Virus record (IMG/VR): IMGVR_UViG_2690316166_000017
Length of the DNA stretch: 8,530 bases
Direction: 5' to 3' (one strand)
From: a virus
Taxonomy: Duplodnaviria > Heunggongvirae > Uroviricota > Caudoviricetes
Under the pieces are notes generated by a model. The model was given only the letters and a program-made list of their open reading frames with translations, was not told the origin of the DNA and did no database searches. The position numbers and the translations under genes are program-made. Of this stretch, positions 2,812 through 8,530 are shown in pieces. Positions within the stretch are counted from its first letter, which is position 1. Each line of letters starts with the position of its first letter.

Positions 2812-3238
2812 TATCTGGAATAACGAAGCACGCACGCTGAAAAACTGGCATCACGACACGGGGAAATACGGGCGAACCATCACCGGGTGGGATGAGGATA
2901 AAAACAATATCCGCACGTTTTACCGGGATGACATCGACCGTTTTCTGGAAATACGCACCCGGCGCATCAACCAGGACAGCACCAGGCGCGTCTCCATGTT
3001 CGTAAAACTGCGCACCGCCCGCTACCTGAAAGCCCGTGCAGATGCTTCCGGTGTGACGGTGGGTTACAGCGGCGTGGCCGCACGTATTGCACGCGTTCAT
3101 CAGTTCGGTGAGCGCGATCAGGTTGCGCCGGGCATTTTCACCGATTACCCGGTACGTGAGCTGCTGGGTATCAGCCAGGCAGATGAGCGCCTGATTTATA
3201 ACACGGTGCTGGGCCGGATTGCGGAGGCTGTACGATGA
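2812..3238 (+). CDS. Phage tail completion / virion morphogenesis protein (P2 gpS-like); 5' end hidden in masked block, so start is unknown
   Basis: Open frame (frame 2) of 142 visible codons ending at TGA 3236-3238, which overlaps the ATG of the gpV-like gene (ATGA), i.e. the position P2 gene S occupies directly upstream of V. The C-terminal motif ...HQFGERDQVAPGIFTDYPVRELLGIS... resembles, from memory, the conserved HQFG / R-x-F-L-G-(L/I)-S region of the phage virion morphogenesis family. There is no in-frame ATG near the visible 5' edge, so the start is within or at the edge of the masked block. Family assignment is from memory, not a search. Confidence 0.5.
3223..3227 (+). promoter_or_regulatory. 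Shine-Dalgarno (GGAGG) for gpV-like gene
   Basis: GGAGG lies 7 nt upstream of the ATG at 3235. Confidence 0.6.
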
Positions 3239-3876
3239 GCGCAGAACTCATGCGACTGCTGAGCAATATCATCCGCACCGGGATCATCTCTGAAGTTGAT
3301 GAGGAATCCTGGTGCGTGCGCGTTCGCAGCGGCGAACTGGAAACAGGCTGGCTGCGCTGGAACACCACGCGCGCGGGAGACTTCAACGTGTGGTTTCCGC
3401 CATCACCAGGCGAACAGGTGGCAATTGCCTGCATCGGCGGCAACCCGGAAACCGCCATGATAATCNNNNNNNNNNNNNNNNNNNNNNNNNNNNNNNNNNN
3501 NNNNNNNNNNNNNNNNNNNNNNNNNGGCAGCCTGTGGAGTGATGCCATTCCGGCACCCGGCAAAAGCCTGAAAGAAATCGTGGTCAGCGCGCCGGACGGC
3601 GCGGTGTTCCGCTACGACGCGGACGCAGGCGCACTGAGCGCAAGCGGCATGAAAACGGCCACTTTGCAGGCATCCATCAGCGTGACACTGAACACGCCTG
3701 TCGTGGAATGCACAGACCTTCTGAGAACAGCGACGCTTGACGTCACAAAAGGGGGAACGATGAGCGGCAATATCACGCACAGCGGCGGCGATTTCACCTC
3801 AAACGGCATCACAGTGCATACGCATAAGCACGGTGGCGTTAAAGGTGGCAGCGATTCGACAGGAGGCCCGCAGTGA
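3235..3876 (+). CDS. V: Baseplate central spike / baseplate assembly protein V (P2 gpV-like, gp5/VgrG-type spike)
   Basis: 213-codon ORF, ATG 3235 to TGA 3874-3876, with codons 3466-3525 masked in frame. N-terminal ...LLSNIIRTGIISEVD... and C-terminal ...KGGTMSGNITHSGGDFTSNGITVHTHKHGG... align with the P2 gpV sequence as I recall it (NMIRTGIIVETD...; QKGGTMRGNIEHTGGELSSNGKVLHTHKH). HxH motif near the C-terminus. SD GGAGG upstream; start overlaps the upstream stop. Confidence 0.9.
   Translation: MSAELMRLLSNIIRTGIISEVDEESWCVRVRSGELETGWLRWNTTRAGDFNVWFPPSPGEQVAIACIGGNPETAMIIXXXXXXXXXXXXXXXXXXXXGSLWSDAIPAPGKSLKEIVVSAPDGAVFRYDADAGALSASGMKTATLQASISVTLNTPVVECTDLLRTATLDVTKGGTMSGNITHSGGDFTSNGITVHTHKHGGVKGGSDSTGGPQ
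3861..3866 (+). promoter_or_regulatory. Shine-Dalgarno (AGGAGG) for gpW-like gene
   Basis: Perfect AGGAGG lies 6 nt upstream of the GTG start at 3873, inside the 3' end of the V coding sequence. Confidence 0.65.
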
Positions 3877-4223
3877 CAACCCGCTACACAGGAATGAACC
3901 CGGACGGGACGGGAAACCTGAACGATATGGCGCACCTGAAACAGTCAGTCAGGGACATCCTGACCACCCCGCTGGCAAGCCGGGTTATGCGACGGGAATA
4001 TGGCAGCCTTGTGCCTGATTTGATTGACGAACCCATGAATAACACCACGCGTCTGCAATGCATGAGTGCTACCGTGATTGCACTGACACGATGGGAACCA
4101 CGCATTGCCCTGAACGCCATCGACGTTGTCTGGAAGGCAGGAGGCCACGCCGGGGTGACGCTGTCGGGCACTGTCATGCAGACCATGCAGAATGTTGAAT
4201 TAACCATCACGCTGAGGGAGTAA
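3873..4223 (+). CDS. W: Baseplate wedge protein W (P2 gpW / T4 gp25-like, GPW_gp25 family)
   Basis: 116-codon ORF with a GTG start at 3873 that overlaps the V stop (GTGA), ending at TAA 4221-4223. MTTRYTGMN...RVMRREYGS...TRWEPRI... matches the P2 gpW pattern as recalled (MTARYLGMN...RVMRRDYGS...KWEPRV). Size and position between V and J are as in P2. Confidence 0.9.
   Translation: MTTRYTGMNPDGTGNLNDMAHLKQSVRDILTTPLASRVMRREYGSLVPDLIDEPMNNTTRLQCMSATVIALTRWEPRIALNAIDVVWKAGGHAGVTLSGTVMQTMQNVELTITLRE
4214..4220 (+). promoter_or_regulatory. Shine-Dalgarno (GAGGGAG) for gpJ-like gene
   Basis: GAGGGAG lies 6 nt upstream of the ATG at 4227, overlapping the end of W. Confidence 0.55.
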
Positions 4224-4226
4224 ATC

Positions 4227-5231
4227 ATGCCTGCCGTTGACCTTTCCCAGTTACCGGAACCCGCCATCATCGCGGAGCCTGACTTTGAGGCAATTCTGGC
4301 TGACACAAAGGCCATGATGATTGCAGCTTATCCCGCCGAACAGCGTGAAGTCGTCTCCGCCGCACTGGAACTGGAATCGGAACCCCTGAACGTTATCGCT
4401 CAAACCATGTCGTTTCGTGAAATGCTGTTACGCCAGCGGGTCAATGAGGCCGCACGCGCCTGCATGTTGAGCCACAGCGCCGGAACAGACCTGGACAACC
4501 TCGCGGGCAATATGAACACAAAGCGCCTGGTTATCACTCCGGCAACGGATACCACCGACGTGGTGATGGAGAACGACACCTCGCTGAGACTGCGGGCGCA
4601 GCGGGCGTATGACGGCCTGAGTGTTGCAGGCCCGTCAGGCGCATACGAGTATTTTGCCCGCAGCGCCAGCGGTCTGGTGCGCGATGCGCGGGCCATCAGT
4701 CCGTCTCCGGCAAATGTGACGGTTTCCATCCTGTCCACTGAGGGCGACGGCACAGCAACGGAGGCGTTGCTTAATACCGTTCGCGCCGTTCTGAATGCAG
4801 AGGATACCCGCCCGGTGNNNNNNNNNNNNNNNNNNNNNNNNNNNNNNNNNNNNNNNNNNNNNNNNNNNNNNNNNNNNNNNNNNNNNNNNNNNNNNNNNNN
4901 NNNNNNNNNNNNNNNNNNNNNNNNNNNNNNNNNNNNNNNNNNNNNNNNNNNNNNNNNNNNNNNNNNNNNNNNNNNNNNNNNNNNNNNNNNNNNNNNNNNN
5001 NNNNNNNNNNNNNNNNNNNNNNNNNNNNNNNNNNNNNNNNNNNNNNNNNNNNNNNNNNNNNNNNNNNNNNNNNNNNNNNNNNNNNNNNNNNNNNNNNNNN
5101 NNNNNNNNNNNNNNNNNNNNNNNNNNNNNNNNNNNNNNNNNNNNNNNNNNNNNNNNNNNNNNNNNNNNNNNNNNNNNNNNNNNNNNNNNNNNNNNNNNNN
5201 NNNNNNNNNNNNNNNNNNNNNNNNNNNNNNN
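4227..5231 (+). CDS. J: Baseplate protein J (P2 gpJ-like); 3' end lies inside masked block 4818-5336, end coordinate is an estimate
   Basis: ATG at 4227, 3 nt after the W stop. The visible 197 codons (MPAVDLSQLPEPAIIAEPDFEAILADTKA...ESEPL...RQRVNEAARA...GLSVAG..GAYEYF...SPSPANVTVSILS...EDTRPV) align along their length with P2 gpJ as recalled (MPIIDLNQLPAPDVVEELDFESILAERKA...RQRVNEAARAVML...GLSVAGSVGAYQYH...SPSPACVTISVLS...EDVRPV). The true stop is hidden; the end is inferred from where the gpI-like gene must start and could be up to ~100 nt earlier. The track's continuation to 5441 is a masking artefact. Confidence 0.8.
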
Positions 5232-5791
5232 NNNNNNNNNNNNNNNNNNNNNNNNNNNNNNNNNNNNNNNNNNNNNNNNNNNNNNNNNNNNNNNNNNNNN
5301 NNNNNNNNNNNNNNNNNNNNNNNNNNNNNNNNNNNNGGTCGCCGGACACCTGCCCGGTGCATCTGCTGCCTTATCTCGCCTGGGCGTTTTCCGTTGACCG
5401 CTGGGATCGCAACTGGCCGGAAGAGACAAAGCGACAGGTGATTCGTGATGCATGGCTGATACACCGACACAAAGGAACCATCAGCGCCCTGCGACGGGCC
5501 ATTGAGCCGCTGGGATACCTCATTCGCGTGTCTGAGTGGTGGGAGTTCAACGGCGAACCCGGAACATTCAAGATTGATGTTGGCACGCTGGACAGTGGCG
5601 TGACGGAGGAAATGTATCTGGAAATGGAGCGGTTGATTGCTGATGCCCGCCCGGTCAGCCGCCACATNNNNNNNNNNNNNNNNNNNNNNCACATGACAGG
5701 GCTGAATATCATTCAGGAGATTCAGGGAGATATTTTCGCGGCAGCAGCAACTTACGACGGTGAAGTCATTACCATTTATCCGGACGATTAA
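5228..5791 (+). CDS. I: Baseplate / tail formation protein I (P2 gpI-like); 5' end inside masked block, start coordinate is an estimate
   Basis: Frame-2 reading from 5339, SPDTCPVHLLPYLAWAFSVDRWDRNWPEETKRQVIRDAWLIHRHKGTISALRRAIEPLGYLIRVSEWWE...MERLIADARPVSRH...GLNI...YDGEVITIYPDD, aligns with P2 gpI as recalled (NPDTCPANLLPWLAWAFSVDRWDEKWPEATKRAVIRDAYFIHCHKGTIGAIRRVVEPLGYLINVTEWWE...). Stop TAA at 5789-5791. About 37 N-terminal codons are hidden; the start is estimated from the alignment. A 22-nt masked block (5668-5689) lies inside the gene, in frame. Confidence 0.8.
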   Translation, partial: XXXXXXXXXXXXXXXXXXXXXXXXXXXXXXXXXXXXXSPDTCPVHLLPYLAWAFSVDRWDRNWPEETKRQVIRDAWLIHRHKGTISALRRAIEPLGYLIRVSEWWEFNGEPGTFKIDVGTLDSGVTEEMYLEMERLIADARPVSRHXXXXXXXXHMTGLNIIQEIQGDIFAAAATYDGEVITIYPDD

Positions 5792-5793
5792 GC

Positions 5794-8328
5794 ATGAGTA
5801 CCACAACACGAAAATTTAAAACCATTATCACCGATACGGGTGCAAAAAAATTAGCGCAGGCAACCGCGCCAGATGGGAAACCTGTCCGCCTGACACATAT
5901 GGCCGTGGGTGACGGCGGCGGTACTTTACCCACGCCAGACAGTAAGCAGACCCGTCTTGTGCATGAGGTGTGGCGACATACCGTTAATCGCGTCACCCTG
6001 GACGCAACACATCAGAACCACATTATTGCGGAGCTGGTTATTCCTCCTGAAACGGGCGNNNNNNNNNNNNNNNNNNNNNNNNNNNNNNNNNNNNNNNNNN
6101 NGTGTGTTTGATGAGCACGGCGATTTGATCGCGGTAGGCAATACTGCCGAAAGTTACAAGCCAACCGTTGCCGAAGGATCCGGACGTGCACAAACATNNN
6201 NNNNNNNNNNNNNNNNNNNNNNNNNNNNNNNNNNNNNNNNNNNNNNNNNNNNNNNNNNNNNNNNNNNNNNNNNNNNNNNNNNNNNNNNNNNNNNNNNNNN
6301 NNNNNNNNNNNNNNNNNNNNNNNNNNNNNNNNNNNNNNNNNNNNNNNNNNNNNNNNNNNNNNNNNNNNNNNNNNNNNNNNNNNNNNNNNNNNNNNNNNNN
6401 NNNNNNNNNNNNNNNNNNNNNNNNNNNNNNNNNNNNNNNNNNNNNNNGGCAGAGGATATTGCATCCGCCGTGGCGCTTGAGGATGCAAGTACGACGAAAA
6501 AGGGGATAGTACAGCTCAGCAGTGCGACCAACAGCACTNNNNNNNNNNNNNNNNNNNNNNNNNNNNNNNNNNNNNNNNNNNNNNNNNNNNNNNNNNNNNN
6601 NNNNNNNNNNNNNNNNNNNNNNNNNNNNNNNNNNNNNNNNNNNNNNNNNNNNNNNNNNNNNNNNNNNNNNNNNNNNNNNNNNNNNNNNNNNNNNNNNNNN
6701 NNNNNNNNNNNNNNNNNNNNNNNNNNNNNNNNNNNNNNNNNNNNNNNNNNNNNNNNNNNNNNNNNNNNNNNNNNNNNNNNNNNNNNNNNNNNNNNACCAA
6801 CAGCACGTCTGAAACGCTGGCAGCGACACCAAAAGCCGTTAAGGCAGTAATGGATGAAACGAACAAGAAAGCCCCATTAAACAGCCCGGCACTGACCGGA
6901 ACGCCAACAACACCAACTGCGCGACAGGGAACGAATAATACCCAAATCGCAAGCACGGCTTTCGTTATGGCTGCGATTGCCGCACTTGTAGACTCTTCGC
7001 CTGATGCACTGAACACACTGAACGAGCTGGCGGCGGCGCTGGGCAACGACCCGAATTTTGCGACCACCATGACTAACGCGCTTGCGGGTAAGCAACCGAA
7101 AGATGCCACTCTGACGGCGCTGGCGGGGCTTGCTACTGCGGCAGACAGGTTTCCGTATTTTACGGGGAATGATGTCGNNNNNNNNNNNNNNNNNNNNNNN
7201 NNNNNNNNNNNNNNNNNNNNNNNNNNNNNNNNNNNNNNNNNNNNNNNNNNNNNNNNNNNNNNNNNNNNNNNNNNNNNNNNNNNNNNNNNNNNNNNNNNNN
7301 NNNNNNNNNNNNNNNNNNNNNNNNNNNNNNNNNNNNNNNNNNNNNNNNNNNNNNNNNNNNNNNNNNNNNNNNNNNNNNNNNNNNNNNNNNNNNNNNNNNN
7401 NNNNNNNNNNNNNNNNNNNNNNNNNNNNNNNNNNNNNNNNNNNNNNNNNNNNNNNNNNNNNNNNNNNNNNNNNNNNNNNNNNNNNNNNNNNNNNNNNNNN
7501 NNNNNNNNNNNNNNNNNNNNNNNNNNNNNNNNNNNNNNNNNNNNNNNNNNNNNNNNNNNNNNNNNNNNTAACCATCCTTACTGGATGTGCAAAGGCTCAT
7601 GGGCTTATGCAAATAATAAGGTCATTACAGATACAGGTTGCGGAAATATTTGTCTTGCAGGTGCTGTGGTGGAAGTTATTGGCACTCGCGGCGCAATGAC
7701 CATACGCGTTACCACGCCGAGCACGTCCAGCGGTGGCGGAATTACTAACGCTCAATTCACTTATATTAATCATGGTGATGCTTACGCTCCTGGCTGGCGA
7801 CGAGACTACAACACGAAAAATCAACAACCTGCATTTGCTTTAGGGCAAACAGGAAGCACTGTCGGAAATGATAAAGCTGTTGGCTGGAACTGGAATAGCG
7901 GGGTCTATAACGCAAACATTGGTGGCGCATCGACATTAATCCTCCACTTCAATATGAATACGGGGAGCTGCCCTGCTGTACAGTTCCGCGTGAATTACAG
8001 GAACGGCGGTATTTTTTATCGTTCAGCGCGTGATGGTTATGGCTTTGAAGCTGACTGGTCAGAGTTTTACACCACAACCCGCAAACCCTCTGCGGGAGAT
8101 GTTGGTGCATATACGCAGGCAGAATGTAACTCAAGGTTTATTACAGGTATTCGCCTTGGTGGTCTGTTATCTGTTCAGACATGGAATGGTCCCGGATGGT
8201 CTGACAGGTCAGGTTATGTTGTTACCGGTTCCGTTAACTCAAACAGAGATGAACTAATTGATACAACTCAGGCAAGGCCAATTCAGTATTGCATTAATGG
8301 GACGTGGTATAACGCGGGGAGTATTTAA
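5794..8328 (+). CDS. H: Tail fibre protein (P2 gpH-like N-terminus and shoulder, lambdoid Stf-like repeat region, divergent C-terminal receptor-binding domain); interrupted by four masked blocks, with apparent frame changes at two of them
   Basis: ATG at 5794, 2 nt after the I stop. The N-terminus (...[26 protein letters not shown]...[13 protein letters not shown]) matches P2 gpH as recalled ([27 protein letters not shown]...[14 protein letters not shown]). Later segments ([22 protein letters not shown]; [20 protein letters not shown]; [44 protein letters not shown]) match the P2 H / E. coli side-tail-fibre shoulder. The C-terminal ...[15 protein letters not shown] resembles the P2/Mu fibre tip (IQKYINGTWYN). 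Stop TAA at 8326-8328. The reading frame is 1 for 5794-6058, 2 for 6102-6538 and 1 for 6796-8328, so the continuous-ORF interpretation assumes the hidden blocks restore frame. Confidence 0.8.
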
Positions 8329-8330
8329 CG

Positions 8331-8530
8331 ATGATGCACTTAAAAAACATTTCTGCTGGTAATCCTGAAACAAAAGAGCAATACCAGCTAACGAAACAAT
8401 TTAACATCAAATGGCTTTATACAGAGGATGGGAAAAACTGGTATGAGGAACAAAAGAACTTTCAGCCTGATACGTTGAAAATGGTCTATGACCACAACGG
8501 CGTTATTATTTGTATTGAAAAGGATGTTTC
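8331..8530 (+). CDS. Tail fibre assembly chaperone (Mu gpU / P2 gpG / Tfa family), 5' part only; runs off the window end
   Basis: ATG at 8331, 2 nt after the H stop, with GGGGAG ~10 nt upstream. Translation [66 protein letters not shown] has the N-terminal signature of Mu U / P2 G-type chaperones as I recall them ([19 protein letters not shown]...W...[15 protein letters not shown]). It is not in the ORF track because no stop falls inside the window. Confidence 0.8.

Follow-up and report, generated by a model that had tools for sequence, protein, structure and literature searches.

A low-GC fiber tip and chaperone region of a P88-like prophage is very probably half of a Mu G segment–type invertible host-range cassette

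Results

The low-GC region at positions 7569–8530 of the window (the whole 8,530-nt stretch of phage DNA analyzed here) is, with a probability that we put at about 0.93, the Sv′-U′ half of an invertible host-range cassette of the Mu G-segment type. It is carried by a P88-like prophage of the P2 family, and its Sv′ part is fused in frame to the fiber gene H. Fiber cassettes of this kind (G, C, and P types) have featured in textbooks since about 1980. The window is interrupted by eight N blocks and ends at 8530; the other half of the segment, the second crossover site, and the invertase are ascribed to it from identical or near-identical contigs.

Positions 5794–7177 on the plus strand, interrupted by N blocks, hold the constant N-terminal portion of H, a tail fiber gene of the P2 type. 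It makes up the promoter-proximal, baseplate-attached portion of the fiber and is joined to the variable end that currently faces it. Its unmasked pieces were 100% identical to the contigs L006 and L001, and the full-length H orthologue in a further contig, L002, matched Pfam Phage_tail_fib (1.1e-53) and Phage_fiber_2 repeats. On the same strand, positions 7569–8328 encode Sv′, the receptor-binding C-terminal part of the fiber, which is variable and here of the Mu S′ (G(−)) type. Since Sv′ is in frame with H, it is in the expressed orientation. The Sv′ protein was identical at 249 of 252 positions to residues 237–488 of PDB 8JU3_A (E = 6.9e-172), an entry entitled “Tail fiber protein S,Tail fiber protein S'”; the structure was reportedly described by Mori et al. 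2024 (Virology). Profile matches were to Pfam gp37_C (1.2e-5) and PHROG tail fiber families. At the DNA level, Sv′ was 95.4–96.7% identical to regions of Mu, D108, and P7 annotated as S′/Sv, and an SfMu region annotated as S′/U′ of the G or C segment was also among these matches. The identity with Mu S′ and structure 8JU3 support the original prediction that the C-terminus of H is the host-range determinant. The further statement that it is the least conserved protein segment in the window does not hold: the protein is 99% identical to Mu S′, and the segment is 97.2 and 96.7% identical to the related prophages L002 and P88, respectively, compared to 92.7% for the N-terminus of H (5690–6058). 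Receptor data for the 8JU3 fiber are cited second-hand, through PMC11821841.

The gene for the cognate tail-fiber assembly chaperone, U′, starts 3 nt past the H stop codon, directly 3′ of the fiber gene. The window holds its first 200 nt (8331–8530, plus strand; 66 codons), and the gene extends beyond the window end. Of the encoded residues, 64 of 66 are identical to Mu U′. These 66 residues, which are N-terminal to the Pfam domain, gave no Pfam match; the full-length U′ orthologue matched Caudo_TAP PF02413 (2.7e-36) and PDB 5YVQ_B, Mu U (E = 1.3e-63). In PHROG, U′ matched a tail fiber chaperone family (6.2e-42), and the 66 residues in the window matched tail fiber chaperone and assembly families. 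The coding content of the region, the C-terminus of H with its terminal residues followed by the start of the chaperone gene (tfa), had thus been read correctly from the start. Two minus-strand open reading frames (ORFs), at 7597–7827 and 7949–8134, had no family matches. A search of 7569–8530 for sigma-70–like promoters or terminators found none, consistent with expression from upstream. When the 200 nt at 8331–8530 were searched for exact matches, seven IMG/VR contigs, L006 included, were found, and there was no match among GTDB species-representative genomes.

The transition from constant to variable H falls in a masked block (7178–7568, plus strand), whose content was reconstructed from L006. 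Within the span of this IMG/VR contig, all unmasked window sequence is matched at 100%, barring a 91-nt island (6448–6538) that the contig lacks; its counterparts of the window N blocks are shorter. Judging from L006, the block should hide the last 63 nt of constant H, a 26-bp gix site, and the first ~185 nt of Sv′. The H-side gix, at L006 4142–4167, reads TTATCGAATACC-TC-GGTTTACAGGAA and encodes ..AAVIEYLGLQETVN.. in frame; H of L006 is a single 656–amino acid (aa) ORF (3142–5112) that reads through it. The block is 391 nt long and the matching stretch in L006, L001, and L002 is 274 nt, so window coordinates inside the block are unreliable. The 91-nt island itself, found in 3,440 genomes, is a ubiquitous repeat of the lambdoid stfR type.

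Crossover sites of the Din family were sought as two inverted 26-bp sites with the consensus TTATCNAAAACC-NN-GGTTT... flanking a segment. L001, L002, and L003 each have two such inverted sites at a distance of ~3.1 kb. The site inside H reads TTATCGAATACCTCGGTTTACAGGAA, and the one beside the invertase gene reads TTATCTAAAACCTCGGTTTACAGGAA. They match the Mu gix, present as TTATCCAAAACCTCGGTTTACAGGAA at both annotated G-segment boundaries, at 24 of 26 positions on the H side and at 25 of 26 on the other. Between the sites, U-Sv lies on the strand opposite to Sv′-U′, the two Caudo_TAP genes converging mid-segment. Constant H reads through gix into Sv′ in L006 and into the other variable part in L001 and P88. 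The region 7569–8530, originally described as a low-GC cassette, is only half of a ~3.1-kb segment whose second chaperone and tip are on the other strand. L001 and L002 differ from each other in the second slot of the segment.

The adjacent serine invertase, which in relatives lies in sequence outside the span of the window, matched Pfam Resolvase (1.1e-50) and HTH_7 (7.4e-13) and was 86% identical to Mu Gin. Its gene was identical to gin at 471 of 592 nucleotides (196 of the first 200) and to cin of P1/P7 at 391 of 594, making Cin the more distant relative. Sequence comparison also revealed a 68-nt stretch corresponding to the enhancer annotated in P7 cin, and this stretch is identical in L001 and Mu gin.

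It is quite possible, at somewhat under even odds, that the window’s own cassette is a remnant locked as Sv′-U′ by destruction of the distal crossover site or the invertase. At the distal gix of L006, the contig that matches the unmasked stretches of the window, an IS600 end, located 4 nt beyond the core, takes the place of the outer half-site; the contig ends inside IS600. The switch of the L006 genome is therefore probably frozen in the Sv′-on state. Related loci show decay as well, with IS600 within Sv′ of L007, L009, and L010 and within U′ of L013; in L007, L009, and L010, the outer half-site is deleted. However, the 91-nt island missing from L006 leaves it uncertain that the window derives from the L006 genome, and rare inversion might still be possible through the 16 bp left of the site and a Din-family invertase acting in trans. 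Even if frozen, the element would still be a G-type cassette, so that this variant refines the main explanation.

Natural prophages occur with the segment in both orientations. Across 4,182 nt of flanking sequence and the 3,096 nt of the segment itself, E. coli FDAARGOS_943 and L006 are 99.9% identical, but the segment runs in opposite directions; in FDAARGOS_943 it adjoins a Gin-like invertase. The joint between the two was mapped to a ~25-nt interval that holds the gix core. L006 and L001 carry the segment in opposite orientations, and L006 4079–4352 (274 nt) is the exact product of in silico inversion of L001 at the gix core. In the O145 strains RM9467-C1 and RM9872, a 3.3-kb inverted segment lies between two 2,966-nt flanks that are 100% identical. 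Among 5,426 E. coli genomes, the H::Sv′ junction of the window was found in 106 and the invertase-side::Sv′ junction in 129. Phase-variable inversion in P2-like E. coli prophages (EPEC) has been documented by sequencing and PCR (Goldberg et al. 2014, PMC4272514). RecA-mediated recombination between inverted repeats is an unlikely source of these flips, since the inverted repeats in L001 are merely 65 nt long and 80% identical and the joint is confined to the ~25-nt interval with the gix core.

Composition marks the same boundary. GC content was 44.6% in unmasked 7569–8530 compared to 57.0% in 3,297 unmasked upstream bases (chi-square 45.4, p = 1.6e-11), and means of 100-nt bins were 0.452 and 0.570 (Mann-Whitney p = 6.5e-5). 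The low GC content originally estimated for the region by hand is thus borne out: the counts of 36–52% are close to the 0.32–0.58 of computed 50-nt bins, and the ~60% sampled in V and J agrees with 59.5 and 59.9%. The drop is concentrated in third codon positions, with GC3 of 0.407 in the H C-terminus and 0.424 in the tfa start compared to 0.686, 0.675, 0.670, and 0.613 in V, W, J, and I. The low GC covers the entire ~3.1-kb segment and runs on into the invertase gene. The maximum-likelihood GC change point, at L006 4142 (support 4043–4232), is the first base of gix and lies 64 nt beyond the equivalent of window 7177; its likelihood ratio was reached by 0 of 200 block shuffles. The unmasked twin contig L006 thus confirms that the break is hidden in block 7178–7568, as originally proposed. 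In L002, change points at 8857/8910 and 12399 accompany gix sites at 8910–8935 and 12213–12238. The break falls exactly at gix, which we attribute to the low-GC cassette traveling between unrelated phage families as a unit.

The original prediction explained this break by exchange of the receptor-binding domain together with its chaperone at a recombination joint on the fiber shoulder. In its strict form, a single swap by homologous or illegitimate recombination that left a now-static locus, this account is very unlikely. It is favored by the sharing of the module across Mu-like, P1-like, and P2-like phages at 89–97% identity and by phages 503458 and 520873, which have the same upstream genes and match only positions 301–962 of the 962-base query, at 87%. 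Together with the second-slot polymorphism, such partly different tips indicate that replacement does occur on evolutionary time scales. Yet the joint coincides to the base with gix, a 26-bp site for a Gin/Cin/Pin-type serine invertase rather than an arbitrary shoulder position; a second, inverted gix and a Gin homologue flank the segment; and otherwise identical prophages differ in orientation only, the two junction types being about equally frequent. Replacement accounts for the origin of the cassette but not for its present architecture or flips. What stands of the co-exchange proposal is therefore a foreign module that pairs tip and chaperone on the evolutionary scale; it missed the inversion switch, and near-identical prophages differ by site-specific inversion, not by cassette replacement.

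That the low GC merely reflects the Gly/Asn/Trp/Tyr-rich composition of fiber tips or local selection, and not foreign origin, is barely credible: amino-acid content is skewed in fiber tips and the constant part of H is already intermediate (GC3 0.45–0.55, below V, W, and J), but GC3 falls to 0.41 in the tip while GC2 (0.53) stays at the level of V and constant H, low GC extends to both chaperones, the second tip, and the invertase gene, the break at gix is a step and not a gradient, and GC is equal in the Mu G segment (0.452, compared to 0.45 for the segment here). Amino-acid composition as the source of the low GC is ruled out by the unchanged GC2 of the H C-terminus set beside its GC3.

The closest known system is the Mu G segment, likewise ~3.1 kb long, which has the same gene content and order (Sv′-U′, opposite-strand U-Sv, adjoining invertase). 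DNA identity is 89% over the whole segment (L006 4139–7235), and the S′ tip is 99% identical. At the DNA level, the similarity of L006 to Mu is confined to this interval: it starts 3 nt before gix and is absent upstream of the site. Mu differs by a patch of ~200 nt within Sv and in being a transposable phage, whereas the phage here is a P2-family myovirus (Xuanwuvirus/P88-like). In place of Sc, the Mu constant part of ~170 aa, the latter has an N-terminus of the P2 gpH type, ~340 aa long and containing Phage_fiber_2 repeats.

The C segment of P1 and P7 works on the same principle, a constant 5′ fiber gene being read into alternative ends across a crossover site. P7 Sv/Ua and P1 Sv′/U′ are 95.6 and 88.7% identical, respectively, to window 7569–8530. 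In contrast to the cassette described here, the segment is ~4.0–4.2 kb long, the cix sites (TTATCCAATACCTTGGTTTAAGAGAA) differ in sequence from gix, and similarity does not begin at the site (cix crossover, L005 3193) but well within the segment (L005 3834). Overall, the module is common to Mu, D108, SfMu, P7, P1, and D6 at 89–97% DNA identity, and nothing else is shared. Related Din-family systems include e14 Pin, p15B Min, and Salmonella Hin.

P88 (KP063541, Xuanwuvirus) shares the backbone of the window, with 93–98% identity over V-W-J-I-H, and has the same cassette with an annotated DNA invertase. It differs in having been deposited in the opposite orientation, with Sv′ silent. The P88 host-range paper does not mention inversion (PMC5285337).

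Discussion

By analogy with Mu, P1, and e14, the invertase, aided by Fis bound to the enhancer within the invertase gene, would exchange strands at the central TC of gix, and exchange at both sites would flip the segment. Transcription and translation would come in from the constant part of H, so that the only fiber tip and chaperone produced would be the pair facing H. Particles in a lysate would then carry one of two receptor specificities. In the orientation of the window, the expressed tip would be of Mu G(−) type. Through recognition of the lipopolysaccharide core, Mu G(−) has a host range that leaves out E. coli K-12 and takes in E. coli C, Citrobacter freundii, Shigella sonnei, Enterobacter cloacae, Serratia, and Erwinia; these host ranges, those of G(+), and the role of Gin have been described (PMC4406740, PMC10434027). 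The SfMu tip is 99% identical, yet SfMu behaves unlike Mu G(−) on Shigella (PMC4406740), indicating that host range cannot be read from identity alone.

Since the similarity to Mu starts within 3 nt of gix on the H side and covers the invertase gene on the other side, there is a small chance that the cassette, with its gix, two tip/chaperone pairs, second gix, and gin, is a self-contained plug-in. In this reading it would pass from one unrelated phage family to another when the invertase recombines gix sites of different molecules, rather than by general recombination, and would then have been locked by IS600 in the distal gix in some lineages, such as that of L006. IS600 insertions, if they freeze the switch, could account for fixed host ranges in some lineages.

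The biology of the cassette is ordinary, already known and understood: the same cassette is annotated in P88 and in hundreds of E. coli prophages, and the structure of the tip has been solved. Host-range prediction from a single assembly captures just one of its two states. When a GC break is encountered at a fiber shoulder, gix and an invertase should be sought before a one-off cassette swap is invoked. In pipeline annotations, the silent half appears as “hypothetical protein” or “tail fiber protein,” and the recombinase is called no more than “recombinase family protein.”

Fiber tip and chaperone at 7569–8530

The window contains eight N blocks, and the 7569–8530 stretch is entirely unmasked. 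When this stretch was used as a megablast query, all full-length matches were annotated as the variable fiber end and chaperone of an invertible G or C segment: S′/U′ in D108 (96.7% identity) and Mu (95.4%), Sv/Ua in P7 (95.6%), Sv′/U′ in P1 (88.7%), and tail fiber/assembly protein in the related prophage P88 (96.7%). The product of 7570–8328 (Sv′, the variable tip of the P2-type fiber gene H) is identical to the Mu fiber S/S′ (PDB 8JU3) at 249 of 252 residues. The residues encoded from 8331 (chaperone U′) match Mu U′ at 64 of 66 positions, and the full-length orthologue is a Caudo_TAP protein, a relative of Mu U in PDB 5YVQ. The original prediction, a receptor-binding domain followed by its chaperone, was thus right.

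The remaining window genes (S-like, V, W, J, I, and H) are those of a P2-family prophage resembling P88 (Xuanwuvirus); megablast revealed no similarity to Mu in this part of the window. In P88 and E. coli prophages, H with one variable end is followed by tfa, an opposite-strand tfa, an opposite-strand variable end, and a resolvase-family recombinase gene; inverted repeats border the segment in relatives. Since the window stops within U′ and its crossover site (gix) is masked, we infer what follows from contigs that are identical or nearly so. The silent variable end is polymorphic (10974–12089 in the related prophage L002 and 8252–9367 in L014 versus 7711–8687 in E. coli FDAARGOS_943, L001). 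It is Mu S-like in L001, P88, and the IMG/VR contig L006; in L002 and O145 strains, it is an unrelated 371–amino acid “hypothetical protein” with no more than faint similarity to Gp34_trimer. The Sv′-U′ half remains 97% identical.

GC content changes at the crossover site

The GC content is 44.6% in 7569–8530 versus 57.0% in 3297 unmasked upstream bases (chi-square P = 1.6 × 10−11), and the means of 100-nt bins are 0.452 and 0.570, respectively (Mann-Whitney P = 6.5 × 10−5). GC3 is 0.407 in the H C terminus and 0.424 in the tfa start compared to 0.61 to 0.69 in V, W, J, and I, while GC2 of the H C terminus (0.53) is not decreased. The drop therefore sits at synonymous positions. The low GC noted originally is correct, as are the coding assignments, H C terminus and then tfa start.

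The boundary hidden under block 7178–7568 can be read in L006 (IMGVR_UViG_2713897140_000015), retrieved by an exact-match scan of IMG/VR. All unmasked window pieces in its span are present at 100% identity with order and orientation kept, except a 91-nt island at 6448–6538; window piece 1–82 falls outside the locus compared. The L006 counterpart of the masked block is 274 nt long, carries the H-side gix at 4142–4167, and consists of the exact letters predicted beforehand from an inversion of L001 between cuts at its gix cores. H is a single 656–amino acid open reading frame running via ..AAVIEYLGLQETVN.. into Sv′. By maximum likelihood, a single GC change point falls at 4142, the starting base of gix (support, 4043 to 4232), with GC of 0.573 to the left and 0.453 to the right; its statistic was matched by 0 of 200 block shuffles. 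The boundary does lie inside the masked block, as had been proposed. For L002, the change point on the left falls at 8857/8910 (gix at 8910–8935), and the one on the right, 12399, is slightly beyond the other gix (12213–12238). GC is 0.45 in the whole segment, 0.48 in the invertase gene, and 0.452 in the Mu G segment, and blastn similarity of L006 to Mu covers 4139–7235 and essentially no other stretch. Therefore, the low-GC stretch is the cassette itself, of which the window covers merely the first third.

Contrary to the original claim, the cassette is not the least conserved part of the window: it is 97% identical to related prophages, compared to 95 to 97.5% for V-W-J-I and 92.7% (to both L002 and P88) for the H N terminus (5690–6058), the least conserved readable piece, whose GC3 is intermediate (0.50).

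The window is not provably L006, since L006 lacks the island and its counterparts of the N blocks are all shorter. Blocks 3466–3525, 4818–5336, 5668–5689, and 6059–6101 exceed those in L006 and L001 by 60, 118, 27, and 22 nt, the pair flanking the island (6198–6447 and 6539–6795) by 425 nt, and 7178–7568 by 117 nt. Block 6059–6101 shifts the H frame in window coordinates, while H is intact, as one open reading frame, in L006. Window coordinates and reading frames across masks cannot be trusted. The island, also missing from L001, lies within H, matches lambdoid stfR-type “prophage tail fiber N-terminal domain” genes at 100% identity, and was found in 3440 of 5426 E. coli genomes. This Phage_fiber_2-type repeat unit is common to P2-like H and lambdoid side-tail-fiber genes; the repeat number varies among L001, L002, and P88.

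Crossover sites and inversion

In relatives, the gix core is TTATCGAATACC-TC-GGTTTACAGGAA within H and TTATCTAAAACC-TC-GGTTTACAGGAA beside the recombinase gene, while Mu has TTATCCAAAACC-TC-GGTTTACAGGAA at each annotated G-segment boundary. The recombinase shares 86% identity with Mu Gin; its gene matches gin at 196 of the first 200 nt and is identical to it in the stretch annotated as enhancer in P7. Another IMG/VR contig, L012, has three gix-like sites (1–26, 2953–2978, and 4944–4969), of which two carry an H-type outer half and the third an invertase-type one; this suggests a multi-site arrangement resembling that of a P2-like prophage of EPEC with three repeats (PMC4272514).

L006 and L001 are 99.9% identical over a 4182-nt flank and a 3096-nt segment, which is reversed; the inversion joint was narrowed to ~25 nt that include the gix core. 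At one shared chromosomal position, the O145 cattle isolates RM9467-C1 and RM9872 differ by the inversion of a 3.3-kb segment, with two 2966-nt flanks 100% identical. Of 5426 complete E. coli genomes, 106 have the H::Sv′ junction (the state of the window) and 129 have the invertase-side::Sv′ junction. Inversion has been experimentally demonstrated in E. coli P2-like prophages (PMC4272514). The locus is a classic host-range switch by DNA inversion, of a kind described before. The proposed cassette exchange holds for its origin, given the matches to Mu, D108, P7, and P1 (88.7 to 96.7%), but overlooked that the present locus is an inversion switch.

The proposed mechanism follows the Mu, P1, and e14 paradigm, of which only the parts are observed here. 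A Gin-type invertase, aided by Fis at the enhancer, would pair both gix sites, and strand exchange at the central dinucleotide would flip the segment. Since no promoter-like or terminator-like sites were found within 7569–8530, expression is taken to enter from the H constant part, so that the H-facing tip/chaperone pair alone would be made. In Mu, the S′/U′ state yields G(−) particles, whose hosts are E. coli C, Citrobacter freundii, Shigella sonnei, Enterobacter cloacae, Serratia, and Erwinia; K-12 is not infected (PMC4406740). Each of the two Mu fibers recognizes a different part of the LPS core (PMC11821841). A P2-type particle may have a Mu G(−)-like host range, although identity is not a sufficient guide: the 96%-identical SfMu tip differs in behavior (PMC4406740).

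IS600 insertions

In L006, the distal (invertase-side) gix is interrupted 4 nt beyond the core by an IS600 end that replaces the outer half-site; the final 63 nt of the contig (7235–7297) are this terminal end (98% identity to annotated IS600, NZ_CP025842.1). The insertion probably locks this genome in the Sv′-on state and probably also breaks the assembly at this point. Three Mu-like prophage remnants (L007, L009, and L010) have an invertase-side gix without the outer half-site (AGAAACGGCCCC-TC-GGTTTACAGGAA) and carry IS600 inside Sv′ (6614–7813, 2910–4173, and 6563–7826, respectively); in the P88-like prophage L013, IS600 lies inside U′ (9548–10811).
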